This document shows, piece by piece, positions 1,612 through 37,388 of a stretch of 64,000 bases of DNA; position 1 is the first letter of the stretch, and the number at the start of each line of letters is the position of its first letter. The stretch is from IMG/VR virus record IMGVR_UViG_3300014205_000193; one strand, given 5' to 3'. A model generated the notes under the pieces. That model was not told the DNA's origin. It searched no databases and saw only the letters and a program-made list of their open reading frames with translations. The stretch comes from a virus. Lineage: Duplodnaviria > Heunggongvirae > Uroviricota > Caudoviricetes. The position numbers and the translations under genes were made by a program.

Positions 1612-1647
1612 ACTATCTCCTTGTTAGGTGTTAATGTAATTATCATA

Positions 1648-2382: not shown

Positions 2383-2391
2383 AATATCTCC

Positions 2392-5653: not shown

Positions 5654-5670
5654 CGAAAAAATAAAGATTA

Positions 5671-7041: not shown

Positions 7042-7060
7042 TTATATAGTATCCCCATTA

Positions 7061-7891
7061 TTACACAATTTGTTCTATTTCTGCATTATCAAGCCGTAAA
7101 CCTTCACAGGTGTTTTCCATTTTAGAAAATAGCATTGGTTCACGGCCTTCTGCCCAGCCCCAGTCCACCAACGGTCTTTTAGAGGATATCAGTATAGGGC
7201 GTAGATACCAGTATCTTTCTTCTAGTATGGCTATCAAACGGTCAGTATATCCATCAGTAAATTTCTCAGAACCAAAATCATCTATGATTAGTAAATCGCA
7301 AGTGAGTGCTCGCTGAAAATAAGGATGACCTTCTACTCTCGTATCTAACACAATGTTCTCAGCAAACATAGTTCCCGTGGTTAATATAAAGTTAGAATAT
7401 ATTTTGTGCCGCTCTACCAGTGCCCGAACGATGCACCATAAAGCACTGGTGCGTCCGATCTGTCGTTCACCTGAATATAGATATAACCCATTCTTTTTAG
7501 CCCTCGGAAAGGATTGAATAAAATCCACTATGGAGGACATGGCCTTGGGTTGTATCCTTGTCAACTCTTCTAACTTAATATTAGCGAATGCCGGGGGTAT
7601 CGATAGCTGGCGTTGCACGCTGGCTGCCGCAGATTCAAGTAACATAGTTTTCTTTATGGGACAGTTTTTCTGTGTAAACTTACCTGTATGTATCTCATGC
7701 TCAGTCTTCCATTCCGCTTTTAACCCTGCACAGGTGTGGCATCGCAATTCCTCACACATTATATCTCGTTGGTACAGGGAATAGTATCTGGCCACATTCT
7801 CCACCGTCATGGCAGTGAGGTTATTTTTTTGCAGCCACTGCACAAATTTTGCTTCTTGATAATATGCAGCAAGAAAGTCAATATCGCTCAT
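7061..7891 (-). CDS. DnaC/IstB-like AAA+ helicase loader
   Basis: P-loop YLYSGERQIGRTSAL, Walker B CDLLIIDDFGSE, and an N-terminal Cys cluster. It sits immediately downstream of the DnaB-like gene. Confidence 0.7.
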   Translation of the reverse strand: MSDIDFLAAYYQEAKFVQWLQKNNLTAMTVENVARYYSLYQRDIMCEELRCHTCAGLKAEWKTEHEIHTGKFTQKNCPIKKTMLLESAAASVQRQLSIPPAFANIKLEELTRIQPKAMSSIVDFIQSFPRAKKNGLYLYSGERQIGRTSALWCIVRALVERHKIYSNFILTTGTMFAENIVLDTRVEGHPYFQRALTCDLLIIDDFGSEKFTDGYTDRLIAILEERYWYLRPILISSKRPLVDWGWAEGREPMLFSKMENTCEGLRLDNAEIEQIV

Positions 7892-7909
7892 GTTGTTCCT
7901 CAGTGTTAT

Positions 7910-8698
7910 TCATGCGGCTTCTTCTTTCAATGGACGTTCTCCGGTAACTACTTTTAAGCCTTGGGCGTTAAGTTTGCCATCAGCTTTGAAATAGTGATTT
8001 AAGGATGGATTTGGAAAACCTGGCATAACACCCAGACGCACTTTAAGTTCGGAGGTGAGCCGACGCAAACCATCGTCGTTCCTTCGGCCTTCTGAAAGGT
8101 CCACCGTAATTACCTCCGCCTTACCGCCACCTATCGCGTGTAAATAGTCGTCTAAGTTGTCATGTTTGGCTAACTCTACCACCAGGGTTTTAGCTGTTTT
8201 AATCTTTTTTAGTAATGTTTGGTTAATGAGGTCTAAAGTATATAGGTATCTAAAAGGACCGATGCTGTATGCTTTGGGGTACATGTGATAGATGTGATCT
8301 ACCACTTTTATAGCTTCGGGGTTATCTTTCAATACCGCCAACTGCTGTTCAATGAACAAGAGGAATTCTTTAAAAATAGGAGTTGCCCCATCTTTATTCT
8401 CTTTATACCCCACTAAAGCCATGGGTCTCCGTTTAAGGTATCCTTTATCAAACCGAGCCAGCCAATCAACATACACACCATAAGGAATATTCCGCTCATG
8501 CATTAACTGTGCTATGCGTAAGATGCCCGCCCGGAGGCCGCCTTGAATCCTATTCCAGGGATATTCAGGTGGAAACTTGGCGTTCAGCATTGCCCACAAC
8601 GGATGCATCGTCCCGGCATTATCCGGGTCTTTACTACCGATACGGCTAGAGGTGGCAGTTGGTTTATCTGCTATTTGTTTGAGTATTTTAAATGTCAT
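7910..8698 (-). CDS. hypothetical protein (replisome-organiser candidate by position only)
   Basis: 262-aa ORF directly upstream of the loader gene in the same operon. I recognise no motif. Confidence 0.4.
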   Translation of the reverse strand: MTFKILKQIADKPTATSSRIGSKDPDNAGTMHPLWAMLNAKFPPEYPWNRIQGGLRAGILRIAQLMHERNIPYGVYVDWLARFDKGYLKRRPMALVGYKENKDGATPIFKEFLLFIEQQLAVLKDNPEAIKVVDHIYHMYPKAYSIGPFRYLYTLDLINQTLLKKIKTAKTLVVELAKHDNLDDYLHAIGGGKAEVITVDLSEGRRNDDGLRRLTSELKVRLGVMPGFPNPSLNHYFKADGKLNAQGLKVVTGERPLKEEAA

Positions 8699-8774
8699 TG
8701 TTTGATACCGATTAATATACGCAATGCAATACTAATTTGCAACATTTATTTTTTTATTGTGAAAATCGCAATAC

Positions 8775-8963
8775 CTAGTGGTGCCGCGATCCCCGGCCCA
8801 CAGCACGCAGTGGTTGCTGATCTCCCATCCGAATAAGCAGCTGTCCGGCACTTACACTGATGGCGATCAGCTTCGGTTTCTTCCACCGCAGCGGCCAGTT
8901 GCTCGGCTGTGTTTCGGTGAAGATAGTAGATCCTGCTGTTACGTTACCTGTTACTGTTTTCAT
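8775..8963 (-). CDS. small hypothetical protein
   Basis: 62-aa ORF with AAGGAG RBS 7 nt upstream of the ATG. It lies in the GC-rich island. Confidence 0.3.
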   Translation of the reverse strand: MKTVTGNVTAGSTIFTETQPSNWPLRWKKPKLIAISVSAGQLLIRMGDQQPLRAVGRGSRHH

Positions 8964-9077
8964 TACTTAACTCCTTACCTTGTACACGTAGTTTCCCTTC
9001 CCCTGGTCTTAAAAAACCAAAGGGTAAACCCTTATTATATCTTCGATACTTAAGAAGAAGACAGGCGCGGAAGCAGT

Positions 9078-11088
9078 TTAACCAGCAGATCTTCCAAAAA
9101 GAAGATCCCCATTAGTTGCTGCTAGATCTTGCAGATCTCCTCGGCTATTTCTAATTCCGAACCTTTTTATATTCCGGGAGAACGACGGATTCAGCGGCAC
9201 CAGGAGGTCACCGTTTCGTCGGTCGTAACTGATGAGTGGGTCGAACCCTGCCCATCGGTCGGGGTCTACTGAAGGCACGGCTACACCGCCGCGAGCTACT
9301 GCAAAGAAATCACCTGTCTTGACTGTGACACGCTTGCTGGTGTACGTCTGAGGCATTGGTCGTCCAGCGGCTAATCGAGGATTAACCGGTAAAAACCGTG
9401 CGTGCTCAACTATGGGCGTTCCGTCCGCCTCTATGCTAAGTACGTTGAATGCCGGTCTAGTGGCATTCCAGATTTTTATCCATTTGGGACTCAAGCAAAG
9501 CCTGGCACACCGGCGACTACATCGCCAGTCAAATCTATCTGACTTAAAACTATTGCCTTCCTGTCGATACCATCGTCCAGAGCGGGAGCGTTTAAACTTC
9601 CCTCCGGTCTTACTGGCCTCGGTCAGGCGGGCACGTGCTGGGTCGTCCATACGCTCCAGCATATCCTCTGTTATCTCTAAATAATTATGTCTTTTATATA
9701 AACTCTGGCTGGCCCGCTCATACTTCCGCTGGCCGCTCGCACTTAACATGAGGTTCTCCGCAATGCGTGTGCGGCAGACCGGAGTATCCCAGGAGGTTAT
9801 TACCCCTTCATATAGCCATGCCCTCATGGCGGATGTTCCCGCGTTTAGTAACTGTATGAACCCTGAATCTATCTTAGCAGTTTTGGCTGCAAAGACTGTG
9901 GCATATGGGCGGCGCACCTTATCCACCGGCACACGCTTGAGTGGGGTGAGCCGAGTTCCATAATCCGTTGGTATCTCTTCTATGTACTTGTAAGATTTTT
10001 TATCTGTGCGATGGTAGATACGCTTATATCGCAACTTCGGGTCCCGGTTGTGTCGGCTAACCCAGGCAGATTCGTGCTTCTTCACGTATTCAGACTGTGA
10101 CCGCATTGTGAGCATCATTTCAGGTGTCAGGCTTCTAGCGTGTGTTATTCTGGTGGGTGAACCCAGGAAGCCGCATTTGATCAGTCTCAGCAACACCGCA
10201 CGGCCTGCACGACCTACTCTTGGGTTGGAGATGAAGCTGGAAAGGAATGTGAGAGCATCCCGCACCTTCAGGTGGGTACTGCGTCGGGTCTTTCTCTGAT
10301 ATGCCATTAGAGCATAGTATATGAAAATCTCCGATATATGTCGCTCTTTCAAGGCCACCTGCAACGCCATACTATCTATCTGCAAGGCGGTGCCAAGTGC
10401 AGGTAACTTTTCCGGGTCGATTATATTTGCAGGCTGCTCCAATAGACGAGATAGTTGAGAGTCTCGTGCATCACCGTTAATAGTTAGGTGGTGTATTTTA
10501 GTACGATATTGACGTTTAACCTGATCCATTTGCTGGGATAACGATATATCTTCTGTATTGCTGGGGTTTCCTTTATACGTGGGAATGTATCGTCCAGCCG
10601 CTTCGCCAAAGTCTTTAATATCCTCTAGTAGGGTGGCAGCTCTATCCCATGAATCCACCATATCACGTCGTTGCAGGGTATGGGGGTTCGTTAAATACCG
10701 GGTCCGCGCGTCTAACATCGGTATGATCGCACTGCCAGTCTCAACCTCTCGGCGCATCCCGTGTGCCATTAACCAACCTCGGAGGTGGTCATTGAAGTCC
10801 TGATCCTGCCCCACACTTCTGCCGGTACCCAAGTTACGATCGATGAGCAAGGTAGGGCGTCCTTTGAGAATATTATACGCTACCCGACCATCAGGTGTAT
10901 GTCGTTCCTCATAGCGTACATTATAGATTAGGTTCTCGGCAACCAACCCGGAAGGGTTGTCATAGGTGTGTAGTTTATGGCAGGTGCCCGCAGCACTCGC
11001 GATGGTCAGCGTCCACCCGCCTTTTGGTCGAGCAGCGGAGTCCACAATGAATGCGGGAGTCTCCTTAATATTGATCATTGACATCGAT
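9078..11088 (-). CDS. hypothetical Arg-rich protein (about 670 aa) in a GC-rich island
   Basis: Long uninterrupted ORF whose likely start is MSMINIKETP. The region is conspicuously GC-richer than its flanks and the protein is very Arg-rich. I could not assign polymerase, terminase, RT or recombinase motifs. Confidence 0.5.
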
Positions 11089-11201
11089 AATAATTTAACC
11101 AATCTGCTTAAAAAAAGCAATACCAAATATGGTGTGTTTTTTAACTAACCGACTACCGCCTATTGTGGTATGCCTTTAAAATCATAAAATATATAAAAAA
11201 C

Positions 11202-14572: not shown

Positions 14573-14923
14573 ATGGAAAACCGTATTGATATATTTGAAG
14601 TTCCGAAGGCAGAAGCCGCCGTTGTCCGCACTATGGATATTCATGTAGAGATGAATAGTGAGGGTTGTATGGTTCAGCGGCGTACCAATGCAGGCACAGC
14701 ATTTCAGAATTTAAAAATGACAGCTTTTTGTATAAGTAATCTAACTATAGCTGCACTATCAGATTTAGATAAACTAGATGAGGTTGTTTCTCCTGGCGCA
14801 GTAGGTGCACAAACTGTATTAGCTGACCTTCGTGCATTTTTAACCAGCACACGGGATGCATCTAAAGTAATGGCCGACATGTTCCAGGTTAAGCCACGCT
14901 CTGCCGGGGGCCAAGATTTATAA
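14573..14923 (+). CDS. hypothetical protein
   Basis: 116-aa ORF. Confidence 0.45.
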   Translation: MENRIDIFEVPKAEAAVVRTMDIHVEMNSEGCMVQRRTNAGTAFQNLKMTAFCISNLTIAALSDLDKLDEVVSPGAVGAQTVLADLRAFLTSTRDASKVMADMFQVKPRSAGGQDL

Positions 14924-16431
14924 TGGTTACATTTATTGTTGATACCAATTTTACTTATGTTGATAGACCGGATCTGGTGCGCACCGCTATTGAGCGGTAT
15001 TTTGTCATAAAGAAAGATGGGTTTGTTCAAGGTATTGATTTTAAGGAGTATGCTGAATCAGGTAAGGTGCAGCTTAAAACTAAATACCATTCAGAAACAA
15101 TTAACCTGTATAATTACCAGACGCAGAAGTTTCCCACTGGTCGGCTGGGTTATATTGTTGATTGGTGTTACGATAACGGACTTCCTTGGAAGATTATTGA
15201 TAATAGGATTAAGCCTGTTCGGCATTTGGATATTGAGTATATAGGACCGCCGTCTGATGGCTCTAATGGCTTACCTGCCAGACCCTATCAAACGAGGGCA
15301 TCCGAGGTTCTTAAAGAACATGGGGGCAGAGGTATACTTTGGCATGCAACTGCCAGTGGTAAGACTATTACAGCTTCACACATTATTGCGGATTTGGGTG
15401 TTAATACATTGTATATGGTACCCTCTATTGAATTACTGGATCAAACGGCAGATGCTTTGACTTCGTTTTTAAAGCTACCTAAAGGGCAGCATATAGGGCG
15501 AATAGGTGAGGGGCAGTGGGATGCTCAACCAATAACAGTAGCCACTACGCAAACATTATGGGCTAGGTTTGATACTGAGTTATGTAAGAAGTTGTTGTCC
15601 AACACAGAGTTATTAATAGGAGATGAAATCCATCACGTTGGTAGTAAAGACAAGGGTCGTACCACCAAAGATTCAAAGGGTAAAGGCTATGATGTAAACT
15701 CCTGGTATATCCTAGCATTGCATTGTCCCGCCTATTACCGAGTAGGTTTAACAGGTACTCCGGGTAAGGATCTGGAGCAGAAGCGATCGTTTATTGAGTT
15801 GTCTTTTGGGAGGGTTATAGATAGAGTATCTGCCAGAGAATTAATAGATGCAGGCATTATTTCTGATGTTGAGATTCACATACATGATATTAAATATAAT
15901 CGAATGTTTCCTGACTTCCCCACTGCGCGTAAAGAGGGTATTTTTTTAAATGATAAGTTTAATGAATATGTGGTGGCTATTACGGTGGCTGAGTTAAAAT
16001 TAGGTAGAAGTGTATTATTACTTACAGATTCTAAGGCACATCAGGGGCCGATGTTGGAGCAGATATTTGCTCGACAGGGTATGTCGGTTCCTTTTATATC
16101 GGGGGAGAGTGGAAGAAAGAGTAGGAAAGATGTGCGGGATAATTTCAAGGATGGAAGTTTAAGGGCGTTGATTGGTACAATATATAGGGAAGGTGTTGAT
16201 TTTCCAGCTCTCGACACAGGAATACTTTGTGGGGGTGGTAAGGACGAGAAGAAAACTATACAGTTTCTAGGGAGGGTGTTGCGGAAGGCTAAAGGGAAGG
16301 ACGTTGCACATTTTCATGATTTTAATTTTAAAGACAAGAAATGGCTCCAACAGCACAGCCGGCTGCGCTTAAGCCATCTGATTGAGGAAGAGCTTGATAA
16401 AATAATAAAACATCCAGGAATAACTATTTAA
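14923..16431 (+). CDS. superfamily-2 DEAD/DEAH-box (ResIII-like) helicase
   Basis: Motif I HATASGKT, motif II LLIGDEIHHVG, motif III GLTGTPG, motif VI QFLGRVLR. Confidence 0.75.
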   Translation: MVTFIVDTNFTYVDRPDLVRTAIERYFVIKKDGFVQGIDFKEYAESGKVQLKTKYHSETINLYNYQTQKFPTGRLGYIVDWCYDNGLPWKIIDNRIKPVRHLDIEYIGPPSDGSNGLPARPYQTRASEVLKEHGGRGILWHATASGKTITASHIIADLGVNTLYMVPSIELLDQTADALTSFLKLPKGQHIGRIGEGQWDAQPITVATTQTLWARFDTELCKKLLSNTELLIGDEIHHVGSKDKGRTTKDSKGKGYDVNSWYILALHCPAYYRVGLTGTPGKDLEQKRSFIELSFGRVIDRVSARELIDAGIISDVEIHIHDIKYNRMFPDFPTARKEGIFLNDKFNEYVVAITVAELKLGRSVLLLTDSKAHQGPMLEQIFARQGMSVPFISGESGRKSRKDVRDNFKDGSLRALIGTIYREGVDFPALDTGILCGGGKDEKKTIQFLGRVLRKAKGKDVAHFHDFNFKDKKWLQQHSRLRLSHLIEEELDKIIKHPGITI

Positions 16432-16470: not shown

Positions 16471-16659
16471 ATGTTAAAATATAACACTGTTAAATTGCAG
16501 GCTTTAAAATGGGGTATTTCTGAAGGTCGGATCATTAAACTAATAGCTGATGGTCGTATTCCGACTGCTACTAGAATTGGTCGGGCATGGGTACTCCCCA
16601 ATGTTGTGAAAGACCCTCGTAAATGCCCTGGTTGGCAATTAGGGCGGAAAAGAAAATGA
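16471..16659 (+). CDS. small helix-turn-helix DNA-binding protein
   Basis: 62-aa ORF with an HTH-like segment LQALKWGISEGRIIKLIADGRIP. Confidence 0.4.
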   Translation: MLKYNTVKLQALKWGISEGRIIKLIADGRIPTATRIGRAWVLPNVVKDPRKCPGWQLGRKRK

Positions 16660-17699
16660 GAAAAAGAAATTTAATTAAAGACATTCCAGGATACAACGGA
16701 AAATATCGTATTGGTGAAGATGGGGTAGTATATAGGAGACAGATAACATACATCAAAGTAAAGGGTTTTTGTGATCCTACAGGGTACAAAAGTGTTCGAT
16801 TATATGCTGATGGGTATAGTGGTGTAAACATGTCTATCCATAGGCTTGTTGCAACTGTGTTTATAGAGAATAAACGCAACTTACCAATTGTACATCACAT
16901 TGACGGCAACCCTAGTAATAACTATAAAGGAAACTTGGAATGGTCTTCTTATTCACACAATAATAAGCATGCTTATGCGGTTAGTCGTGAGAAATATAAT
17001 CCGACTATTGATATTCCGAAAGAACAATTTGTTAATCTCCAGGATGCGAAGATAGCTAATCTCTCTAGTAAGCAAGAGTTATTTGTTCCATATTTGTACG
17101 ATCCAGCATACAAAGTCTCTAACAGAGGGCGTATACTATCTGTTAAGCAGGGTAAAACTAAACTACTGCGTCAGAAGCAGACTAGAGGTGGTTATTGTGC
17201 TCTTTCTCTACTGGTCACAGGCAGGGTTAAACATGTAAATATACATCGACTTGTCGCAGAACACTTTATTCCTAACCCAAATAATTTTAAAGTTGTTAAC
17301 CATAAGAATGGGATTAAGACAGATAACAGGGTTGAAAATTTAGAGTATTGTTCACATTCCTACAATACGCAACATGCTTGGAATACAGGTTTGATTACTC
17401 TTACACCAACCAAATTGGCTAAATTACATAAATATGGTTTTAAACCCAATAGGCAGCAGACCTACACCGAGAAATTAAAGCGATGCCGGAGTAACAACCC
17501 CTATCAAATTGCTGAGATATCTTCGAACGGGAGAATACTAAAAACCTGGTATTTTGCTAAAGATGTACAACAAGAGATGGGTATAAATAGGAAGTTGATC
17601 GGATTATGTGCTAAAGGAAAAATTACTGCTGTTGCAGGGAGAATATTTAGATATGTCCAAGAAGATAATTTGGGTGCTTTAAAGGTAGTGTCTGTATGA
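16656..17699 (+). CDS. HNH homing endonuclease with tandemly duplicated NUMOD4 + HNH_3 modules
   Basis: Two copies of the module: first IPGYNGKYRIGEDG ... HRLVATVFI..VHHIDGNPSNN..NLEW, second VPYLYDPAYKVSNRG ... HRLVAEHFI..VNHKNGIKTDN..NLEY. ATGA overlap with the upstream stop. Confidence 0.75.
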   Translation: MRKRNLIKDIPGYNGKYRIGEDGVVYRRQITYIKVKGFCDPTGYKSVRLYADGYSGVNMSIHRLVATVFIENKRNLPIVHHIDGNPSNNYKGNLEWSSYSHNNKHAYAVSREKYNPTIDIPKEQFVNLQDAKIANLSSKQELFVPYLYDPAYKVSNRGRILSVKQGKTKLLRQKQTRGGYCALSLLVTGRVKHVNIHRLVAEHFIPNPNNFKVVNHKNGIKTDNRVENLEYCSHSYNTQHAWNTGLITLTPTKLAKLHKYGFKPNRQQTYTEKLKRCRSNNPYQIAEISSNGRILKTWYFAKDVQQEMGINRKLIGLCAKGKITAVAGRIFRYVQEDNLGALKVVSV

Positions 17700-20066: not shown

Positions 20067-20348
20067 ATGGAATTTTTAACAGTGTATGCACAAGAACGGA
20101 TTACGGGAGAGGTGCATTATGATCTCCCGGTATTAATAAATGGGGAGGCTAACGGCTACACTGGCAATCCTATAAAATTAGATCCAGGAACCATTGATGT
20201 GTCTGTAGAGGCTGAGCATGCCGAGTCACACCACATACGACTGGAGAACACCACCGTGACTACTCCTCTTAAAGTAACTATTATGTTTGGGGATGAATAT
20301 CCTGAAATCCCGGATGTACCAGAATTTGACGGAGGTCCTAATGTTTAA
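20067..20348 (+). CDS. hypothetical protein
   Basis: 93-aa ORF with AGGAG RBS (ctacaggagtaattatg). Confidence 0.45.
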   Translation: MEFLTVYAQERITGEVHYDLPVLINGEANGYTGNPIKLDPGTIDVSVEAEHAESHHIRLENTTVTTPLKVTIMFGDEYPEIPDVPEFDGGPNV

Positions 20349-21729
20349 GAAGATTAAACGAGTGTTGCTGGTAGTCTTGACTTTTGGTTTATTGTATGGC
20401 CTGACCGGGGCATGTTGTTCCGCACAGTATAATATTGCAGGAAGAAGCAACCCTCCGTCACCAAAGCCAGTAGTTGAAGATGATCAGACCTTAATGTATA
20501 CTTGTTTTTCTGGTGGCGGCACTCGTGCTATGGCCATGGGTTATGAAGTTGTTGATGCCCTAGCTAAGGTTGATTATAAGGTTTATGTTAGAGGTCCTTC
20601 ACTTTTTGACACCACCACCCTACGTGAGGAAATAGACTATACATCAGGTGTCTCAGGAGGATCATTCGTAAGTGCGGCGCTAGCTGTTTACCCACAGGAA
20701 GAGTGGCCTATATTTTATCGTAAGGGGGTGTCCAGAGATATTCAAGGTAGCATTATTAAACATCTGCTGGCAGTTAAAAACTGGCCAAGATTACTGTCTC
20801 CTTATTATAACAGAACAGATTTAGCATCTGAGTTTTATGACCATCGGGTTTTTAAGAATTATACTTTTGGAGATTTGCCACAGAGGCCAGTGGTTTACAT
20901 CAACACAACAGTATTGGCTGCTCGATCGCACTTTGTTTTTACTGATGAATATTTTAGGTATATTGGTTCGGACATTTACAAATATCCTGTGGGCTTTGCT
21001 TGCGCAGCTTCCAGTGCCTTTCCTGTAGGTTTTGCCCCCATGACGCTGCGTAATTACATAAGAACCTATCAATCAGAAGATTCGCTCAGACTGAATGCAC
21101 ATTACAGATACGCGGTAGCTAATGAGCAAGCTGATATACAGCAGCATGCCTGGGCAGACTTATATCGATTTTTACGAGATACATCTAACCAGTGGTTGCA
21201 TGTATCTGATGGTGGTATTGCGGGGAACACAGGTATTGAGCGAGTATTAGACGCCTGGAGAAGTAACGGTATTATAAACCGAGCGCTGAATGACGTAAAA
21301 AATCCGCTGAAACGACTGATTTTTGTAGTTGTAAATGCAGGTGCAGGCGTCCCGGATGGTAGTTGTTCTAAGCGGATGGCGCCAAATGCCTTCAAGGTGT
21401 TAATGTATACCACTACCACTTCTATGGACCTAATGTCTGCCACCAGAATTGCGGAGTTAAAAGCACGGGTTGACGAATTGTGGACGATAATTCAACAGTC
21501 CAGAACTTTTGATGCTTCTCTGGCTAATTTGGAGAAACCATACTTAATAGAGATAAGTGCCCGAAACTTACCTGAAGGAGTGCTTAAGCAGGCTTTTAAT
21601 AACATACCTACGACATTTGACCTGCCCGCGGAGCAGTTATTGACTATTAGACAAGCAGTAGCAGAGTTGATGACTAATAACACAGAGTATCAAAGGTTAT
21701 TACAATCGATAGCAGCAGAGCGTAAATAA
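20341..21729 (+). CDS. patatin-like phospholipase with N-terminal signal peptide (possible lipoprotein)
   Basis: Oxyanion motif FSGGGTRAMAMGY, serine lipase motif GVSGGS (GxSxG), and DGG dyad motif HVSDGGIAGN. N-terminus MFKKIKRVLLVVLTFGLLYGLTGAC has a hydrophobic core followed by Cys. Confidence 0.7.
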   Translation: MFKKIKRVLLVVLTFGLLYGLTGACCSAQYNIAGRSNPPSPKPVVEDDQTLMYTCFSGGGTRAMAMGYEVVDALAKVDYKVYVRGPSLFDTTTLREEIDYTSGVSGGSFVSAALAVYPQEEWPIFYRKGVSRDIQGSIIKHLLAVKNWPRLLSPYYNRTDLASEFYDHRVFKNYTFGDLPQRPVVYINTTVLAARSHFVFTDEYFRYIGSDIYKYPVGFACAASSAFPVGFAPMTLRNYIRTYQSEDSLRLNAHYRYAVANEQADIQQHAWADLYRFLRDTSNQWLHVSDGGIAGNTGIERVLDAWRSNGIINRALNDVKNPLKRLIFVVVNAGAGVPDGSCSKRMAPNAFKVLMYTTTTSMDLMSATRIAELKARVDELWTIIQQSRTFDASLANLEKPYLIEISARNLPEGVLKQAFNNIPTTFDLPAEQLLTIRQAVAELMTNNTEYQRLLQSIAAERK

Positions 21730-22209: not shown

Positions 22210-22493
22210 GTTACCTGCAAGCTGCTCTCAGTGTCCGCATTGGCAGCTTAGTCAGGAGTTCGGATATAAGATATGTGAACTAGCAAACATCGCCGGGTCG
22301 CCTAAACATCTACCCGCCGAGTGTCCCCTGCATGGGCGGGATAGAGATGCTGCATATGCCTAGGGCACTATTGCAGTTTACGTGCAGAAGTATACTAAGA
22401 GATGTCATAATGACGACATTTATATGTTGTGTTCAATACCATTTACACACAAAACAATTAACGCGGGGTAAACCCGCTAAAGGAGAAAATCAG

Positions 22494-22757
22494 ATGAATT
22501 TCGGAAAAGCAATTGAAGAATTGAAACTTAGTAAAAAAGTATCTCGTCAGGGTTGGAATGGAAAAGGAATGTTTCTTGCATTAGCGTATCCTAATACTTC
22601 ATGCTGCAATGAGGCGATCAAATTTAATCATGGCTATGAAGGTGTATCGCCAATATTGGAAAACTTCATAGTTATGAAAACAGCGGATAATAAACTCGTT
22701 CCGTGGCTTGCAAGTCAAACAGATGTACTCGCAGAGGATTGGGGAATCATAGAATAA
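22494..22757 (+). CDS. DUF2829-family protein, Tad2-like candidate anti-Thoeris signal sponge
   Basis: 87 aa with AGGAG RBS. MNFGKAIEELKLSKKVSRQGWNGKGMF...LVPWLASQTDVLAEDW matches my memory of the DUF2829 consensus (MNFGEA.EALK.GKKV.R.GWNGKGM ... PW..SQ.D.LAEDW). Confidence 0.55.
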   Translation: MNFGKAIEELKLSKKVSRQGWNGKGMFLALAYPNTSCCNEAIKFNHGYEGVSPILENFIVMKTADNKLVPWLASQTDVLAEDWGIIE

Positions 22758-22784: not shown

Positions 22785-22880
22785 ACACAACAACGGCAGG
22801 GCGTCATTAAAACGACGCCCGACCTGCTCTTCCGAGCAGTGCCGAAATGTTGGTTGCAATTTTGGCCGCAAGGCAAAGAA
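22785..22880 (+). ncRNA. repeated structured leader element, copy A (two hairpins + aaatgttggttg + cgcaaggca box)
   Basis: About 90-nt element aligning with 24135-24245. Hairpins GGGCGTC-attaaaac-GACGCCC and CTGCTC-ttcc-GAGCAG. Confidence 0.45.
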
Positions 22881-22889
22881 AGGAAAATT

Positions 22890-23204
22890 ATGTTTTTTAA
22901 AAACATTGCAAAAGAATTAGGCGAGAAATTTCTATGTCTACAGTCCGCTAATTGTTGTGACATAACAGAATGCAATAAGATAAAGTGGAACCCAAAAACA
23001 ATGAACGAATCAAAAAATATCGGTTACAATCACAAAGAGTATGTTTTTTCACATAGCATAGTAAATATTCATTCTGGAGATGAGTTTGTTTATTATAAAG
23101 AAGCGGTGCAAGACAAAAGGCAGCGTCCAAAAACAGTACGGGTGAGTACACCCCAACCAACAAAGGCAGTACGCAAGCCGAGTACGGCCAGCGCACATGC
23201 CTAA
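22890..23204 (+). CDS. hypothetical small protein
   Basis: 104-aa ORF MFFKNIAKELGEKF...; an RBS-like aaaggaaaa and the repeat element lie upstream. Confidence 0.4.
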   Translation: MFFKNIAKELGEKFLCLQSANCCDITECNKIKWNPKTMNESKNIGYNHKEYVFSHSIVNIHSGDEFVYYKEAVQDKRQRPKTVRVSTPQPTKAVRKPSTASAHA

Positions 23205-23244
23205 ATGTTGTGCAAAATACGGTCGCAATACAGAGGAGAAAAAA

Positions 23245-23421
23245 ATGGAAGATAAACCAGTTTACATATGTAACCACAATAATTGCTTACATCGTCCATG
23301 TACTGTTATTGGAAAAGTAAATGATAGAGAGCCTAAGTGGTGTCCGTTTGATAAGGGTTCGGCTGATTTTAAATTAAAGACAGCGACCGTACTTCGCACA
23401 ACAAATGCAAGTAGCAAGTAA
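23245..23421 (+). CDS. small Cys-rich protein
   Basis: MEDKPVYICNHNNCLHRPCTV..., AGGAG RBS, preceded by the aaatgttg motif. Confidence 0.35.
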   Translation: MEDKPVYICNHNNCLHRPCTVIGKVNDREPKWCPFDKGSADFKLKTATVLRTTNASSK

Positions 23422-23501
23422 ACAGCAACTTGCATAAATGTTGGTTGAAATAAGTTTTCGCGCAAGGCAATAGCGCACGCAAGCGTGCTAAAGGAGGAAA
23501 G

Positions 23502-23804: not shown

Positions 23805-23870
23805 AGGCAGCGACATAGCTAAATGTTGTACGCAATACCGCGCAAGACATAAAACAAAAGGAGAATATGA

Positions 23871-24128: not shown

Positions 24129-24134
24129 AGCGTA

Positions 24135-24245
24135 CAACAACGGCATGGTGCCATTAAAACGGCACCAGACCCGCTCTTCCGAGCGGTGCCGAAATGTTGG
24201 TTGAAATTAAAATTGGCGCAAGGCAGTAACGCGCCTTACAGGCTC
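24135..24245 (+). ncRNA. repeated structured leader element, copy B
   Basis: Hairpins TGGTGCC-attaaaac-GGCACCA and CCGCTC-ttcc-GAGCGG. Base substitutions relative to copy A are compensated on the opposite strand of both stems. Confidence 0.45.
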
Positions 24246-24562: not shown

Positions 24563-24606
24563 ACATCAAGTAGTACGCAAAACCGCCGCAAGGCAAAAGG
24601 CGACAA

Positions 24607-24753
24607 ATGGATGATGACGAAGAAGATTATATAAACATACGGACTCACATTGTTTGCGGTATAATGGTTTACGACAGCATGCACGATATGATATTAGCTG
24701 GCCTTTGGGAGGACAAAAAAAATGAAGTACGAAAACTATTACAATCAATTTAA
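24607..24753 (+). CDS. small acidic protein (48 aa)
   Basis: Short plus-strand ORF MDDDEEDYINIRTHIVCG... preceded by cgcaaggca motif and aaaagg RBS. Preferred over the antisense ORF 24566-24784. Confidence 0.3.
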   Translation: MDDDEEDYINIRTHIVCGIMVYDSMHDMILAGLWEDKKNEVRKLLQSI

Positions 24754-25831: not shown

Positions 25832-26122
25832 ATGAAATTTCAAGAAGCATTCCAAGTTTTTACAAAAACATTAAAAAAAGATAAGGCACTTTATCAAGCC
25901 TATCAAGCCAATATTGCTATGGCTTACTATGATTGTGCCAGATGGGAAGGTAGTCGAGATTCTTCTGTCAAACGGCACGCTATTGGTAATAGGGCAGCTA
26001 CTTACTTCTTAGACCTGCTCTTACGACCCACCGCTAAGCCTTCTAAAGGTAAGCCTGCCACTAAACCAAATATTCCATTGACAGACGCTAAGCAGAAGAA
26101 GAGGGGTAAATGTACGAAATAA
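25832..26122 (+). CDS. hypothetical protein
   Basis: 96-aa ORF with AGGAGG RBS. Confidence 0.4.
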   Translation: MKFQEAFQVFTKTLKKDKALYQAYQANIAMAYYDCARWEGSRDSSVKRHAIGNRAATYFLDLLLRPTAKPSKGKPATKPNIPLTDAKQKKRGKCTK

Positions 26123-26967
26123 TTTACGCAGACCCGCCTTGGTCTTTTAGTAACAAGAAGACCGGTGGCTCCATGAAGAGTGGATCGGCCGCTCAATACA
26201 GCTGTATGAGTATTAAGGAGTTGGCCAGCTTGAATGTACAGTCCCTGTGTGCAGAGAATTGCGCCCTCTTTATGTGGTGGGTAGCGTCGATGCCTGATGA
26301 AGCATTACATGTTGCCCGGAGTTGGGGATTTAAGTTCAAGACCATGACCGAGTTTGTATGGAATAAGACCACAGTGCATGGTAAGCCTTTCTTTGGGATG
26401 GGATTCAGCACTCGGCAGGGGTCTGAGAGTTGTTTGCTGGCCGTTAAAGGAGACTTCAAGCGTATCTCTGCATCAGTCAGGGCTGTTATCACACACCCGA
26501 TTCTAGCCCACTCAGAGAAGCCTGACATCTTTAGGGATAGTATTGTTGAATTGATGGGGCCACTGCCTCGTTTGGAGATGTTTGGTCGTAAGGCAGTTCC
26601 CGGCTGGGATATGTTCGGCGATGAGGTTCCTGATTCTATAGAAATTCCTGCGGTAACACGCATTATTATGCCGGGTAAAATAAAAATAGGTGCGTATACC
26701 TTTGATAACAAGTGCCCACAAAGCTGTCCTGGTCATGGCGAGGGGGTTAGAGATTACGATTTATGCAGGTGGTGTCCCATATTCAACTGTGGACCAGAAG
26801 GAACCATTGTAGGCTGCTCCCCAAAAGAGTATCGTGTTGATTGGGCAGCTATATGGCATGCTTGGTTTGGTACGGATATGAAGGATTATCCGCAGTTATC
26901 CATAGTTAATATCGTGGACAGCTGTGCAAATGCTCTTACTGGAGGCCAGCATGAAAATGCTACATGA
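26110..26967 (+). CDS. MT-A70-family N6-adenine DNA methyltransferase with Cys-rich C-terminal extension
   Basis: DPPW catalytic motif (IIYADPPWSF) near the N-terminus. C-terminal ~130 aa contains CPQSCPGHGEG...CRWCPIFNCGPEG. Confidence 0.75.
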   Translation: MYEIIYADPPWSFSNKKTGGSMKSGSAAQYSCMSIKELASLNVQSLCAENCALFMWWVASMPDEALHVARSWGFKFKTMTEFVWNKTTVHGKPFFGMGFSTRQGSESCLLAVKGDFKRISASVRAVITHPILAHSEKPDIFRDSIVELMGPLPRLEMFGRKAVPGWDMFGDEVPDSIEIPAVTRIIMPGKIKIGAYTFDNKCPQSCPGHGEGVRDYDLCRWCPIFNCGPEGTIVGCSPKEYRVDWAAIWHAWFGTDMKDYPQLSIVNIVDSCANALTGGQHENAT

Positions 26968-27673
26968 TGATTGTTTACGGGCTATGCCCCACATAGCGGA
27001 TGCGGTGATAGATGCCATCATATGTGATTTGCCTTATGGTAGCACTAAATGCCCATGGGATATTTTGATACCTTTTGATAGTCTATGGAGTAGCTACAAG
27101 AGAATTTTAAAAGCAAATGGTGTAATTATTTTGTTTGGTCAAGAGCCTTTCAGTTCATTATTACGAATGTCTAATTTAGCCTGGTACAAGTATGACTATT
27201 ATTGGGAAAAAGAAAGATTAACAAATGTAATGCAAGTCAAGCGGCGTCCGGGTAAGGTGATAGAGACAATATCAGTTTTCTATAACAAACAACCTACGTA
27301 CATTCCTCAGATGGTAAAATATGCCGGGAAGATAGTTACAAATAAAGTTTTAGCAGGTAAATTAGGGACACTAATAGATCAGGGGGCTAAAAAAGTATAT
27401 GAATATAAAGATACTGGTTATAGGTATCCAACCCAGGTATTAAGATATAAACGAGATACCCTGGTAAGTAATCTGCACCCAACGCAGAAACCTCTGGCAT
27501 TATTGGAGGAATTGATTCGTACTTTTACTAAAGTTGGCGATTTGGTATTGGATAATTGCATGGGAAGTGGTACCACAGGGTTAGCTTGTAAAAATCTTGG
27601 CAGGAACTTTTTAGGTATAGAAAAAGATAAGCATTATTTTGAGATAGCCGTAGAAAGGCTTCGTGACCTATGA
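26951..27673 (+). CDS. beta-class DNA methyltransferase (N6-adenine or N4-cytosine, DPPY type)
   Basis: Motif IV AIICDLPYG near the N-terminus and motif I LVLDNCMGSGTTGLA near the C-terminus (beta permutation). GGAGG RBS before ATG at 26951. Confidence 0.75.
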   Translation: MKMLHDDCLRAMPHIADAVIDAIICDLPYGSTKCPWDILIPFDSLWSSYKRILKANGVIILFGQEPFSSLLRMSNLAWYKYDYYWEKERLTNVMQVKRRPGKVIETISVFYNKQPTYIPQMVKYAGKIVTNKVLAGKLGTLIDQGAKKVYEYKDTGYRYPTQVLRYKRDTLVSNLHPTQKPLALLEELIRTFTKVGDLVLDNCMGSGTTGLACKNLGRNFLGIEKDKHYFEIAVERLRDL

Positions 27674-28005
27674 TGATCTACACCTCTTATTATGCCAAGT
27701 ATAAAGGAGCTAATCCGGTGTCCATTGCAGGTCGCTGCCCTGTGTGGTACAAAGGTCGCGAGTATAAGAAGCTGGCACCTAAATATGATTTTTTTAAGAA
27801 ATATAAAGAAGACGGTAATGAGGCGGAGTACACGGCAGCTTTTCAGGCGCAGGTACTTGACCTGTTGGACCCGGCAACCGTCCTGTCTGAACTAGGAGAG
27901 AATGCTGTTTTATTGTGTTGGGAGAAGAGTGGGGAATTTTGCCATCGCCATCTCGTAGCTAAGTGGTTGCGGGATAAATTGGGGATTGAATGTACAGAGT
28001 TGTAG
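27670..28005 (+). CDS. DUF488-like protein
   Basis: C-terminal VLLCWEKSGEFCHRHLVAKWLRD resembles the DUF488 (YeaO-like) signature; from memory only. Confidence 0.4.
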   Translation: MMIYTSYYAKYKGANPVSIAGRCPVWYKGREYKKLAPKYDFFKKYKEDGNEAEYTAAFQAQVLDLLDPATVLSELGENAVLLCWEKSGEFCHRHLVAKWLRDKLGIECTEL

Positions 28006-28083
28006 CACACTATAAATTAACCTAAACTTTACGCATGCAATTTTTTTGTTGCATTTATTTTTTTAATTAGTTATTATATACAC

Positions 28084-28437
28084 ATGTTGGAACAAAGGCT
28101 GAACTGGGATTTGCAAGAAGAAGTAGGGCACTGGGCTGTGCAAACCTTTCCGAAGGCGACACACACCTCCATCACTGCGCATATGTACAAGGAGTTACAG
28201 GAGTTACGCGCAGCAAAAACTACACTCAATAAAGCAGAAGAGTGTGCAGACCTTTACCTCATGTTGCTGCACCTGGCACATATCAATGGTTTTGATCTAT
28301 TCTTATCCGGTCGGCACAAACTAGACATATGCCGAGGCCGCACCTGGTGCAGACCCGATGCGGAAGGTGTGGTTGAGCATGACCGATCTAAAGAGAAGAA
28401 CCTTATAAAATTTAAAGCGGTTAAAAGGAAACGATAA
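28084..28437 (+). CDS. MazG-like all-alpha nucleoside triphosphate pyrophosphohydrolase
   Basis: Pattern YKELQEL...EECADLYLMLLHLAHINGFDL typical of MazG/NTP-PPase helices. Confidence 0.45.
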   Translation: MLEQRLNWDLQEEVGHWAVQTFPKATHTSITAHMYKELQELRAAKTTLNKAEECADLYLMLLHLAHINGFDLFLSGRHKLDICRGRTWCRPDAEGVVEHDRSKEKNLIKFKAVKRKR

Positions 28438-28937
28438 TGTCCAAAGTATACATAACCATTGGGTTACCGGGAAGTGGTAAATCAACCTTGACTCGCTGGA
28501 TGTGTGATAACGATCCCAATCTACTCGCCGTGAATAAAGATGCACTTCGTACCATGATTTTTGGAGGGATGTATAAATACGATCCCATATTTGAACCTAT
28601 TGTTAAAGAGACTTCGGTTCTGTGTGCACTTCATATCCTTCATGCCGGGTACGATGTTATCCTAGATGAGACTTTTTTATCTAAGGCTCGTCGTGTTTGG
28701 TGGGTTTCTTTTTTCAAGGATAGAGGTTTTAAAACCACTTATCTTCATTGTACAGAGATGACTTATAACGTGAGAAATAGGATGCATGGAGGAGGTCGGG
28801 GTTACAGTGCCGAGCATTGGCGCAGAGTCATTGATGAGTTGGGGGTAACTTATGAACCGCCCACTATGGATGAGGGTTGTGAAGAGATTCAGATACACGC
28901 CATGCCTATATTGGAGGTGCCTGATGTCCATCCCTAA
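28437..28937 (+). CDS. P-loop polynucleotide kinase-like protein (kinase domain only)
   Basis: YITIGLPGSGKSTL..AVNKDALRTMI...VILDETFL parallels the T4 Pnk kinase domain (ILTIGCPGSGKST..NINRDDYRQSI..VIISDTNL). Confidence 0.65.
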   Translation: MSKVYITIGLPGSGKSTLTRWMCDNDPNLLAVNKDALRTMIFGGMYKYDPIFEPIVKETSVLCALHILHAGYDVILDETFLSKARRVWWVSFFKDRGFKTTYLHCTEMTYNVRNRMHGGGRGYSAEHWRRVIDELGVTYEPPTMDEGCEEIQIHAMPILEVPDVHP

Positions 28938-31534: not shown

Positions 31535-32485
31535 ATGATGGCTCAGTACTCAGATTCAGACGCAGATTTTTTAAAGTTTATTAAACATCCTATAGTCAGG
31601 AAAATAGGTTTTGGTATCTTGTTAATTATTTTGTTTCTATTTTTAAATCCGGTAAAGATAATTGAGTCCAATGAGCGAGGTTTACGCTTTACCCTGGGTT
31701 CCTTATCCAAGACTGTTTTACAAAGTGGTGCCCATTTACGAGTACCTATTATACAGACCATAATTGCAGTTGATATTCGACCAGTAGAACTCAACTCTGC
31801 TATTCCGGTAGGGCCAGATGGCGCCATAACTAAAGATAACCAGACCGTTGGTGCTAAGTTACGAGTATTTTATGTATACAAACAGAGTGATTTATTGGTC
31901 ATGTGGAAAGATTATGGGGAAGATAAAATAAAGAGTTTGATAGAGTCCGCTATAAAAGAGAGCTTCAAATCTGCCATCGGGGCGTATACTATATTTGATA
32001 TCCCACTTAGTCAAAATCAAATACAATCTTCGGTTATTGCTGATATCAGGAGAAAATTAGAAAAGTACCCTATAGAGCTTACTGAGTTACGAATAACAAA
32101 TTATGATTGGTCAGATCAATTTGATGCACAGATTCAGGCCACCATGGAAAAAGCACAAGAGGCTAAACAGAAGGAACAGGAGCTTAAGGTATCGGAACTG
32201 GAGGCGCAGAAGATTGTTAAAAAGGCAGATGCCGATAAGCAAGCCACTATTGTTAGAGCAGAAGGGGGCCGAGAGGCTGCCAGGTTGGATGCGGAGGCTA
32301 TGGTACTAAAGGGCGAGGGTATTCGTAAATTCAATGAATCTATTCGGGCAACTAAAGATATTGAATTAAAATTAAGGGAACTTGACATTGAAAAGATGCG
32401 CGTTGATAAGTGGGATGGTGCTTATGTTCCTACGAATAATTACGGCCCAATTCCTATTGAAACAGGCCGATTGAAGGGGCAGTAA
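31535..32485 (+). CDS. SPFH/band-7 (stomatin/HflK-like) membrane protein
   Basis: N-terminal TM (IGFGILLIILFLFL), SPFH core (NERGLRFTLGSLSK...IRPVELNSAI...DNQTVGAKLRVFY), and a C-terminal Ala/Glu/Lys coiled coil. Confidence 0.7.
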   Translation: MMAQYSDSDADFLKFIKHPIVRKIGFGILLIILFLFLNPVKIIESNERGLRFTLGSLSKTVLQSGAHLRVPIIQTIIAVDIRPVELNSAIPVGPDGAITKDNQTVGAKLRVFYVYKQSDLLVMWKDYGEDKIKSLIESAIKESFKSAIGAYTIFDIPLSQNQIQSSVIADIRRKLEKYPIELTELRITNYDWSDQFDAQIQATMEKAQEAKQKEQELKVSELEAQKIVKKADADKQATIVRAEGGREAARLDAEAMVLKGEGIRKFNESIRATKDIELKLRELDIEKMRVDKWDGAYVPTNNYGPIPIETGRLKGQ

Positions 32486-34206: not shown

Positions 34207-34518
34207 ATGCCAAGAGTCAGTAAGATTTATTCACCAGGAATGTCCAAAGCACAGTTTAAAGCTCGTCTTAAGGAGCTGCAAAAGGAATTTAAGACCGATG
34301 GTGCTATCGGTGCGCAGTTTGGGATCTCTCGTCAGGCTATTCATCAGTTGCGAGAGAAGTGTAAGATTAAAGCGCTCACCAGCCGCAATGTTCCTCGTAA
34401 TCGGGAGATTACTAAACGTTACAATGGAGGAGTGCATCCATTCAAGTTGGCGCAGGATTATGAAATGAGTGTATCGCAGATATACCGCGTATTGAATAGT
34501 TCAAAAGGGAAGAAGTAG
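34207..34518 (+). CDS. small HTH DNA-binding protein
   Basis: GAIGAQFGISRQAIHQLREK HTH-like segment. Confidence 0.45.
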   Translation: MPRVSKIYSPGMSKAQFKARLKELQKEFKTDGAIGAQFGISRQAIHQLREKCKIKALTSRNVPRNREITKRYNGGVHPFKLAQDYEMSVSQIYRVLNSSKGKK

Positions 34519-35677: not shown

Positions 35678-36247
35678 ATGAAATTATCAACATATGCAAA
35701 AAAACTGGGTGTAACATATCGTACGGCCTGGAATCACTATCAGCAAGGAACTATACCTGGGGCATACGCTCTAGCAAATGGGACTATTATTGTACCCGAA
35801 GATAAAATATCAGCGATTGGATTAACGGCTACATATTCTCGCGTTTCTTCTTCTGAGAACAAAACTAACCTTGTAGCTCAGTCAAAGCGAGTGCAGGAAT
35901 TTTGTGCGGCTAAGGGTTGGGTTGTTTCTTTTGTTGTTGAGGAGTGTGGTAGCGGGCTTAACGATTCAAGAAAAAAATTAGAAAAGCTCTTGGATAATAA
36001 GCTGGTTACTCGTATTGTGGTAGAGCACAAGGATCGCCTTACGCGCTTTGGCTTTAATTATTTGAAAAAATTATGGCCTGGAGATATTGTCGTAATAAAT
36101 GAAGCGACGGAAGACGAAAAAGACTTAATGCAGGACTTCGTGTCTCTTGTTACGTCTTTCATGGCACGCCTTTATGGTCGAAGACGTAGTAGACGTGTAA
36201 CAGAAAAACTTATTAAAAAACTAAACGATGATTCAAAAAGCATATAA
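35678..36247 (+). CDS. tnpA: IS607-family transposase TnpA (serine recombinase with N-terminal MerR-like HTH)
   Basis: N-terminal HTH MKLSTYAKKLGVTYRTAWNHYQQG; catalytic-serine region YSRVSSSENK; resolvase-like core. Confidence 0.8.
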   Translation: MKLSTYAKKLGVTYRTAWNHYQQGTIPGAYALANGTIIVPEDKISAIGLTATYSRVSSSENKTNLVAQSKRVQEFCAAKGWVVSFVVEECGSGLNDSRKKLEKLLDNKLVTRIVVEHKDRLTRFGFNYLKKLWPGDIVVINEATEDEKDLMQDFVSLVTSFMARLYGRRRSRRVTEKLIKKLNDDSKSI

Positions 36248-37388
36248 ATTTAAAATTTATCCAAATGCTTCCCAAGCAGTTTTGTTAAACAAGACTTTTG
36301 GTGCTTGCCGTTATGCTTGGAACCAGTGGGTTGAAAATTTTAATAAGCCAAAAGAAGAAATCAAAGTTTTTAACACGCCCAAACAATTTAAAACTGACTT
36401 AGGCTGGATGAAGGAAATTAGCTCAGCCGCTATTCAACAAAAAGAGCAGGACTTCTTTGCGTTCAAGCAGCAGTTTTTTAACCAGAAGCGCAAAACTAAG
36501 TTAGGTAGACCAGCGTTTAAATCTCGTAAGAATAAGCAGTCTTATAGATTACCAAATCAGAAGTTTTACGTCGAAGACACTAAAATCAGGTTGGAAAAGA
36601 TTGGTTTCATTAAGGCTGTTTTTGATCGCGCAATTCCTGTTGGTGTGAAGTTTATAAATTGTACTATTAGTAAAGATGTAGTTGGTGACTTTTTTGTGTC
36701 TATCCTTGTGGAGCAAGATGTCCAACAGTTGCCTAAAACAGGAAAGACCATAGGTATTGACGTGGGGTTAAAGTCTTTTGCTGTATTGAGTGACGAGACT
36801 GTTATTGATAACCCAAAATTTTTCAGAGAGAACCAATCTGGATTAAAGCGGATTCAACAGCACTTGTCTCGCAAGGTCAAAGGTTCTAACCATTATAAAA
36901 AAACCAAACGACAGGCAGCAAGAGTTCAAAGAAAAACTGCAAGACAACGCAATTACTTCCTGCACAATGTCTCGTCCTATATTGTAAATAATTTTGATGT
37001 TATCGCAATAGAGGATTTAAACATTAAAGGAATGGTGAAAAATCATTGTCTTGCTAAGTCTGTTCATGACGCTTCTTGGTCTGAGTTCTTCAGACAACTT
37101 GATTACAAGGCCGCGTGGTACGGGAAGACATTGAGGGTGGTCGGAAGGTTTGAACCCACGTCCAAGACTTGTAACGTGTGTGGTTTCTATTATAAGGATA
37201 TGACTCTTGACATAAGAGAATGGGCTTGTCCTTGTTGCGAGACTGTACACGACAGAGATGTAAACGCAGCTAAAAACATTTTAAAACAATCCGTAAGAGT
37301 TGATGCGGAGCTACAGACGTGGAGTGAGTATCAGACTTTAGGAAACCAAACTGAAGCGACTCTCTGTGAAGTGTCGAGGGTTTTATGA
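36228..37388 (+). CDS. tnpB: TnpB (OrfB) RuvC-like RNA-guided nuclease family, IS200/IS605/IS607
   Basis: N-terminus KAYKFKIYPNASQ; RuvC-like IGIDVGLKSFAVLSD ... AIEDLNIKGM; C-terminal zinc finger CNVCGFYYK...CPCCETVHDRDVNAAKNI. Confidence 0.85.
   Translation: MIQKAYKFKIYPNASQAVLLNKTFGACRYAWNQWVENFNKPKEEIKVFNTPKQFKTDLGWMKEISSAAIQQKEQDFFAFKQQFFNQKRKTKLGRPAFKSRKNKQSYRLPNQKFYVEDTKIRLEKIGFIKAVFDRAIPVGVKFINCTISKDVVGDFFVSILVEQDVQQLPKTGKTIGIDVGLKSFAVLSDETVIDNPKFFRENQSGLKRIQQHLSRKVKGSNHYKKTKRQAARVQRKTARQRNYFLHNVSSYIVNNFDVIAIEDLNIKGMVKNHCLAKSVHDASWSEFFRQLDYKAAWYGKTLRVVGRFEPTSKTCNVCGFYYKDMTLDIREWACPCCETVHDRDVNAAKNILKQSVRVDAELQTWSEYQTLGNQTEATLCEVSRVL

Follow-up and report, generated by a model that had tools for sequence, protein, structure and literature searches.

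A short-insert Tad2-family protein encoded at the head of a motif-bearing array of small genes on a probable jumbo phage contig

The window, as the whole 64 kb stretch of DNA analysed here is called, carries a gene, tad2, whose product of 87 aa begins MNFGKAIEELKLSKKVSRQGWNGKGMF and ends PWLASQTDVLAEDWGIIE (full translation: MNFGKAIEELKLSKKVSRQGWNGKGMFLALAYPNTSCCNEAIKFNHGYEGVSPILENFIVMKTADNKLVPWLASQTDVLAEDWGIIE). The initial annotation had described this open reading frame and some of its residues, and the translation agrees exactly. A longer in-frame ORF opens at 22332 but was rejected as the tad2 gene; the start is placed at 22494 because the homologues and the 87-aa ENA gene call begin at MNFG. 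The gene is preceded by a strong Shine-Dalgarno sequence (Table 1). Exactly the same protein is encoded on the ENA metagenome contig ERZ27247358:k141_2474311 (236,752 bp), of which the window is a piece, and a metagenome protein catalogue already contains the sequence, for which a PF11195 tag had been precomputed.

Two genes upstream of tad2 lies a gene for a patatin-like phospholipase with intact GGGxR, GxSxG and DGG motifs. This enzyme looks secreted, having an N-terminal hydrophobic segment of the signal or lipoprotein type, and a patatin gene likewise occurs within 10 kb at another Tad2 locus, L002. Alongside it, upstream of tad2, stands an ORFan of 151 aa whose product matches no Pfam or PHROG family. 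Downstream, ten small ORFs separate tad2 from a pair of methyltransferase genes, and searches of Pfam and PHROG likewise gave no match for the small ORFans there. Two DNA methyltransferases had been proposed at 26-27.7 kb, and Pfam recognises them as MT-A70 (PF05063) and N6_N4_Mtase (PF01555) enzymes; the latter measures 240 aa in the ENA call and 249 aa when the ORF is read from a GTG at 26924. The same plus-strand run (26110-28937) continues with genes for a DUF488-N3a protein, a weak dATP/dGTP pyrophosphohydrolase-like protein and an AAA_33 kinase. As the Pfam matches of the neighbouring genes include no restriction-enzyme domain, both methyltransferases look orphan and protective.

Table 1. 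Features of the tad2 region and its genomic setting; positions refer to the 64 kb window unless a contig is named
Feature	Position	Strand	Basis
Replication/recombination module	301-11126, and L085 on the contig to the left of the window	-	
DEAD/ResIII helicase gene	14923-16431		
HNH_3/NUMOD4 homing-endonuclease-like gene	16623-17699	+	
Patatin-like phospholipase gene	20341-21729	+	PF01734
tad2 leader: degenerate motif (ATATGTTG...AATACC...ACACAAAACA), then hairpin GCGGGGTAAACCCGC (22463-22477)	22422-22477	+	Alignment, fold
Shine-Dalgarno AAAGGAG, 8 nt before the tad2 ATG	22479-22485	+	Read from sequence
tad2-like CDS, 87 aa, single DUF2829/Tad2-like domain	22494-22757	+	PF11195, 8SME match, AF2/Foldseek
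Three-way-junction element, copy 1, 29 nt downstream of the tad2 stop codon	22786-22856	+	Fold, covariance model
Leader motif AAATGTTG-N-AATT-N-CGCAAGGCA upstream of gene 22890	22845-22875	+	Exact site
ORFan, 104 aa, basic; C-terminal part common to L202	22890-23204	+	No Pfam/PHROG match
Degenerate leader motif (AAATGTTG...CGCAATACA) upstream of gene 23245	23203-23232	+	Alignment
ORFan, 58 aa, Cys-rich	23245-23421	+	No Pfam/PHROG match
Reduced junction element, P3 deleted, P1b AUGCA/UGCAU	23397-23447	+	Model R1, 32.3 bits, E 5e-7
Leader motif upstream of gene 23502	23436-23469	+	Exact site
ORFan, 100 aa	23502-23804	+	No Pfam/PHROG match
Leader motif upstream of gene 23871	23821-23849	+	Exact site
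ORFan, 85 aa	23871-24128	+	No Pfam/PHROG match
Three-way-junction element, copy 2	24133-24203	+	Fold, covariance model
Leader motif upstream of gene 24257	24192-24225	+	Exact site
ORFan, 101 aa	24257-24562	+	No Pfam/PHROG match
Degenerate leader motif (AAGTAGTACGCAAAACC..CGCAAGGCA) upstream of gene 24607	24568-24595	+	93% identical to L202 2326-2355
ORFan, 48 aa, acidic; last motif-bearing gene	24607-24753	+	No PHROG/Pfam match
MT-A70 family DNA methyltransferase gene	26110-26967	+	PF05063, 90.6 bits
N6/N4 DNA methyltransferase (N6_N4_Mtase) gene	26951-27673	+	PF01555, 106.5 bits
SPFH/Band 7 membrane-scaffold protein gene	31535-32485	+	PF01145, 98.8 bits
Mor-family transcription activator gene	34207-34518	+	PF08765, 25.6 bits
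IS607-type pair: serine resolvase and TnpB/OrfB_IS605 transposase-like genes	35678-37388	+	PF00239; phrog_506, E 3e-114
'Polyvalent' protein gene, 2956 aa, ART-PolyVal domain at residues 913-1035	45459-54329	+	PHROGs 8642, 21376
Further distinct junction copies on Logan contigs	L200:2952-3022, L201:2285-2355, L202:1959-2029		Covariance model

Tad2 proteins are small proteins of viruses that sequester the signalling molecules with which bacterial Thoeris immunity raises the alarm. The 87-aa protein is a new member of this known, well-characterised family, also called DUF2829. Its sole Pfam match in hmmscan is to PF11195 'Tad2-like' (E 7.9e-25), covering profile positions 1-73 of 73 and residues 1-86, and PHROG 1048 and PHROG 872 match it at about 1e-26. 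The initial annotation had already named DUF2829/Tad2 as the likely identity; the PF11195 score of 87.6 bits, against a gathering cut-off of 25 bits, bears this out, and the solved relatives, the predicted fold and the pocket residues concur. Among all PDB chains, the significant phmmer matches are Tad2 proteins only, the best being SPO1 Tad2 (8SME/8SMF/8SMG, 8WJE; E 1.7e-19), followed by ModTad2 from a Myroides odoratus prophage (8V3E, 9EIB; E 5e-18), HgmTad2, which is AcrIIA7 (8KBI and others; E 2e-14), and SptTad2 (8WJD; E 6e-14). BLASTP identity to the 87-aa protein is 48% for SPO1 Tad2, 46% for ModTad2 and 40% for HgmTad2. Homologues are numerous: a large protein catalogue holds 6601 at E <= 1e-5, the closest 77% identical, 315 GenBank phage records contain the domain according to tblastn, and IMG/VR viral contigs carry 457 confirmed relatives. 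Other Tad2 loci taken for comparison (L002, L003, L104) differ in GC and have only a context of many small ORFs in common.

An AlphaFold2 model of the single chain, built from an alignment of 111 sequences (A1), has a mean pLDDT of 89.3. Its elements (H3-11, E15-18, E27-31, E58-62, E68-70, H75-79, E83-86) follow the order found in SPO1 Tad2, namely a helix, four strands with a long loop, a short helix and a last strand. In a Foldseek search of the PDB with this model, the top 24 matches are Tad2 chains without exception (E 3e-9 to 1e-6, TM 0.67-0.82), and the next match, at rank 25, has an E value of 1.5.

The coding sequence has kept its conserved core under constraint. Compared with the homologue of 77% amino acid identity on the Logan contig L201, the core (65 codons) has 14 differences that are synonymous only and 3 replacements, and therefore appears to be under purifying selection. 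In the insert the same comparison gives 5 synonymous-only codon differences and 8 replacements.

SPO1 Tad2 (gp34.65) is a small single-domain protein (89 aa), and the 87-aa protein is predicted to share its fold; the two agree in their pocket motifs, GWNG and W..SQTD, and in having a similarly short insert between beta2 and beta5. The insert sequences are unrelated, that of the 87-aa protein including an SCC motif, and the new protein sits in a different, uncultivated phage-like element. In SPO1 Tad2, the main contacts to 1''-3' gcADPR are made by W25, N26, W73 and D79, the adenine is contacted by T78, I63 and T65, and a water network involves N26, D67, H71, W73, S76 and D79 (Yirmiya et al., 10.1101/2023.05.01.538930). 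Of these residues, W25, N26, I63, T65 and D67 align to W21, N22, M61, T63 and D65 of the 87-aa protein, and H71, W73, S76, T78 and D79 to V69, W71, S74, T76 and D77. Two positions thus differ from SPO1 Tad2, methionine replacing I63 and valine replacing H71, which makes a water-mediated contact. Both M61 and V69 equal residues of HgmTad2, M76 and V84, that contact adenine there (PMC10680739).

The likeness to HgmTad2 extends to the rest of the pocket, since W21, N22, G23, M76, V84, W87, L88, S90, T92 and D93 of that protein all have identical counterparts. They include the residues altered in the W21A/N22A and S90A/T92A/D93A mutants of HgmTad2, both of which lose gcADPR binding (PMC10680739). 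The 111-sequence alignment shows no variation at W21, N22, G23, M61, T63, W71, L72, S74 and D77, and conservation of 90% or more at D65, V69, Q75 and T76 (>97% at T76).

The insert sets the 87-aa protein apart from part of the family. Between GMF and MKT it spans 33 aa, against 31 in both SPO1 Tad2 and ModTad2 and 48 in HgmTad2, and the insertion of about 41 residues between beta2 and beta5 that marks the long-insert subgroup (HgmTad2, SptTad2, SaTad2; 8KBI-8KBM, 8WJC, 8WJD) is absent. HgmTad2 binds cyclic dinucleotides (cGG/cGAMP) in a pocket formed by R31, S47, F70 and N85 (PMC10680739), none of which has an aligned counterpart in the 87-aa protein. From the contact residues and the short, SPO1-like insert, binding of a gcADPR-type signal in the canonical pocket is predicted, as is the lack of a cGG/cGAMP pocket. 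Long-insert members additionally bind CBASS dinucleotides; dual CBASS and Thoeris activity is not predicted here, because both the insertion of about 41 residues and R31, S47, F70 and N85 are missing.

Taken with its family membership, this makes the 87-aa protein very probably a sponge of the Tad2 family for ADPR signals derived from TIR proteins. Expressed early from a repeated leader cassette, the protein would, on the model of SPO1 Tad2, assemble into a homotetramer. Its pockets, formed where protomers meet, would then bind and sequester an ADP-ribose-derived signal from Thoeris TIR proteins, most likely 3'cADPR or 2'cADPR (1''-3' or 1''-2' gcADPR), so that the Thoeris effector would never be activated and the phage would escape abortive infection. 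The anti-Thoeris activity is one that we infer from membership in the family, and the exact target would be type I, II or IV Thoeris, or Pycsar.

With moderate confidence, the main ligand is predicted from the pocket residues to be 3'cADPR/2'cADPR. Overall identity leaves the ligand unfixed, because ModTad2 is nearly as similar as SPO1 Tad2 and does not block type I Thoeris; instead it binds His-ADPR, the signal of type II Thoeris, and, in a second pocket, the cUMP/cCMP of Pycsar. ModTad2 resembles the 87-aa protein in length, in its short insert, in a near-identical N-terminal helix and in the GWNGKGMF motif. It differs in reading L-K-T-V-D-N-D where the 87-aa protein has M-K-T-A-D-N-K, and SVSD in place of SQTD. 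The latter signature, which is also that of SPO1 Tad2 and HgmTad2, is the sole feature that favours gcADPR.

A Tad2-family sponge with another main or additional ligand is possible but rather unlikely; its target would then be either several systems together or one that is not type I Thoeris. The candidate ligands would be His-ADPR (type II Thoeris), N7-cADPR (type IV) and, in a second pocket located at the dimer interface, cUMP/cCMP (Pycsar). All of these activities are found among tested Tad2 homologues, some of which inhibit three Thoeris types (PMC12393519). Tad2_71, for instance, blocks types I, II and IV, and other homologues inhibit type IV Thoeris, Pycsar or CBASS. The 87-aa protein is also almost equidistant from SPO1 Tad2 and ModTad2, its N-terminal half is closer to ModTad2, and a second pocket is possible in short-insert proteins such as ModTad2. 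The S-Q-T-D signature of the gcADPR-binding proteins SPO1 Tad2 and HgmTad2, unlike the S-V-S-D of ModTad2, nevertheless speaks against such a shift, as does the conservation of T76 throughout the subfamily, and the long insert and the cyclic-dinucleotide residues of HgmTad2 are both absent.

It is very improbable that the gene is a DUF2829 member with no counter-defence role, whether as a decayed passenger or with a different function. One of the five homologues assayed by Yirmiya et al. did fail to block type I Thoeris (10.1101/2023.05.01.538930), but this 'negative' homologue was later shown to be a type II Thoeris sponge, and in the 87-aa protein the pocket residues are all intact, behind a strong ribosome-binding site and within a core under purifying selection. 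Least credible of all is an anti-CRISPR of the AcrIIA7 type acting on Cas9: AcrIIA7 (HgmTad2) has the same DUF2829 domain and some phage records label homologues 'anti-CRISPR protein', but Cas9 inhibition by HgmTad2 and other Tad2 homologues proved irreproducible in vitro and in vivo (Li et al., PMC10680739), the family has been argued to be anti-Thoeris (Yirmiya et al., 10.1101/2023.05.01.538930), and identity to HgmTad2 is only 40%.

The tad2 gene heads a series of genes with similar leaders. A motif, AAATGTTG-N5-AAWW-N3-9-CGCAAGRCA, lies 11-32 nt before the start codons of tad2, where it is degenerate, and of the next six genes. Exact sites number four (none expected by chance), all on the plus strand between 22.8 and 24.3 kb, and degenerate sites precede two further downstream genes in addition to tad2. 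At least eight tiny genes had been said to share the motif; it is real, and it precedes six of the ten downstream ORFs (four exact sites, two degenerate), being absent from genes beyond 24.7 kb. The position of tad2 at the head of a small-gene island likewise holds in part, as tad2 does head the motif-bearing array, but small ORFs occur upstream as well, at 19.2-20.3 kb. About 73 nt of the tad2 leader is 83% conserved in the Logan contigs L200-L202.

A scan for sigma-70 promoters found no site coinciding with the leader motif. The window encodes a Mor-family transcription activator, and such an activator could drive middle promoters that are not sigma-70-like, of which the leader motif may be one. 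A metagenome scan with the motif pattern returned 33 single matches, which is the chance level, and no contig with several. No Rfam family reaches its gathering score anywhere in the window. A preQ1-II riboswitch was considered for the tad2 leader (22401-22493, plus strand; 25.8 bits against a gathering score of 47) and rejected as a chance match, because the score stems from the Shine-Dalgarno sequence and a generic hairpin, and P1 is not formed.

The AAATGTTG block doubles as the 3' arm of a hairpin, which at two sites is expanded to a three-way junction. This element, of roughly 65 nt, lies between small genes, its 3' arm being the AAATGTTG block of the next gene's leader. All eight differences between copies 1 and 2 are compensatory and fall in four base pairs, and across six distinct junction sequences compensatory changes affect 11 of 23 pairs. 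In these six sequences 97.7% of cells pair, against 25-42% with slid partners, a value reached in none of 500 shuffles. Conserved parts include the loops AYUAAARC and UUYC, a junction GAY and a GAAA bulge. The element has no match in Rfam, and none in IMG/VR viral contigs.

The same cassettes accompany the closest relative of tad2. Contigs L200-L202 carry a gene whose product is 77% identical to the 87-aa protein, with 83% DNA identity over tad2 and its leader. Besides tad2, what these contigs have in common with the window is limited to the leader motifs, the junction elements and part of the 104-aa gene. The genes between the junction elements or cassettes differ between the two phages, so that gene content is mosaic.

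The closest described analogue of the intergenic cassette appears to be the PeSL/PmSL elements, composite promoter-stem-loop cassettes that separate ORFans in hyperplastic regions of T4-type phages and mediate modular shuffling (PMC4122927). Both systems consist of repeated units of a stem-loop, a two-block motif, a Shine-Dalgarno sequence and a start codon between consecutive small ORFans, with mosaic gene content between the units in a relative. Here, however, no sigma-70-like -35/-10 pair coincides with the motif, the stem-loop is elaborated into a covarying three-way junction whose loops are conserved, and a T4-type genome is not indicated, the polymerase being of family A. The element may be a mobile regulatory or recombination cassette, acting as RNA or as an attC-like site in single-stranded DNA. 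The AAC...GTT arms, internal loop and variable branched tip would suit the attC-like alternative; an mRNA processing or stability element is a further option. On a tentative reading, which we regard as doubtful, tad2 would be one of the cassettes of a shuffling array bounded by this structured element, itself not previously described, which would carry counter-defence genes from one phage to another, otherwise unrelated one.

The wider setting was surveyed over the window and 10 kb on either side. The replication and recombination module encodes a primase, two SF2 helicases, DnaB, a DnaC-like loader, a UvsX-like recombinase, a clamp loader, a sliding clamp, a UDG-PolA fusion, an SbcCD-like pair and an IF1/eIF-1a-like protein. 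PolA is of family A and at most 28% identical to any GenBank phage record, and megablast with the 20-30 kb part of the window gave no nucleotide match to GenBank phages. PHROG and Pfam searches, including large proteins of no assigned family, revealed no capsid, portal or terminase in roughly 104 kb of the contig, where the one structural-type match is a weak baseplate-like one. No tRNA genes were found. The 236.7 kb contig, which lacks a close relative in culture, is probably a novel jumbo phage.

Several other genes of the window deserve mention. The large 'polyvalent' protein carries an ART-PolyVal (ADP-ribosyltransferase) domain, which is typical of polyvalent proteins of phages and conjugative elements; its gene is followed by one tagged BubE (PF20137, precomputed), glycosyltransferase genes and a gene for a weak NUDIX protein. 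In the IS607-type pair, the serine resolvase gene overlaps the TnpB/OrfB_IS605 transposase-like gene, and the closest genomic relatives of this TnpB, among 185k genomes, are only about 42% identical and come from Methanosarcina and diverse MAGs. A gene for an SPFH/Band 7 membrane-scaffold protein lies among phage ORFans. The HNH_3/NUMOD4 homing-endonuclease-like gene directly follows the DEAD/ResIII helicase gene.

The initial annotation had read the region around tad2 as an anti-defence or host-takeover island, which is plausible. Support for it is circumstantial and comes from the orphan methyltransferases, the shuffling-prone PeSL-like cassettes and, in another part of the window, the polyvalent protein. 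Several IMG/VR contigs (L091, L093, L094, L099, L102, L118) likewise have an MT-A70 gene within about 4 kb of tad2; this is consistent with a counter-defence theme and proves nothing about the ORFans.

For the Tad2 family itself the gain is small, as it already counts thousands of homologues in catalogues, has a named Pfam entry and is represented by several crystal structures. The 87-aa protein adds a divergent short-insert member from a novel jumbo-phage-like lineage, and could be of use in mapping how ligand specificity varies within the family. More novel than tad2 itself is the intergenic cassette on its flanks, common to a mosaic relative, whose covarying element is a candidate for a new structured RNA or a recombination site. 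A gene of a known sponge family here marks an array of ORFan cassettes, including a mini-zincin family without a Pfam entry, whose members are reasonable candidates for a counter-defence screen. Were tad2 indeed part of a shuffling array, the six neighbouring ORFans with the same cassette would be new counter-defence genes.
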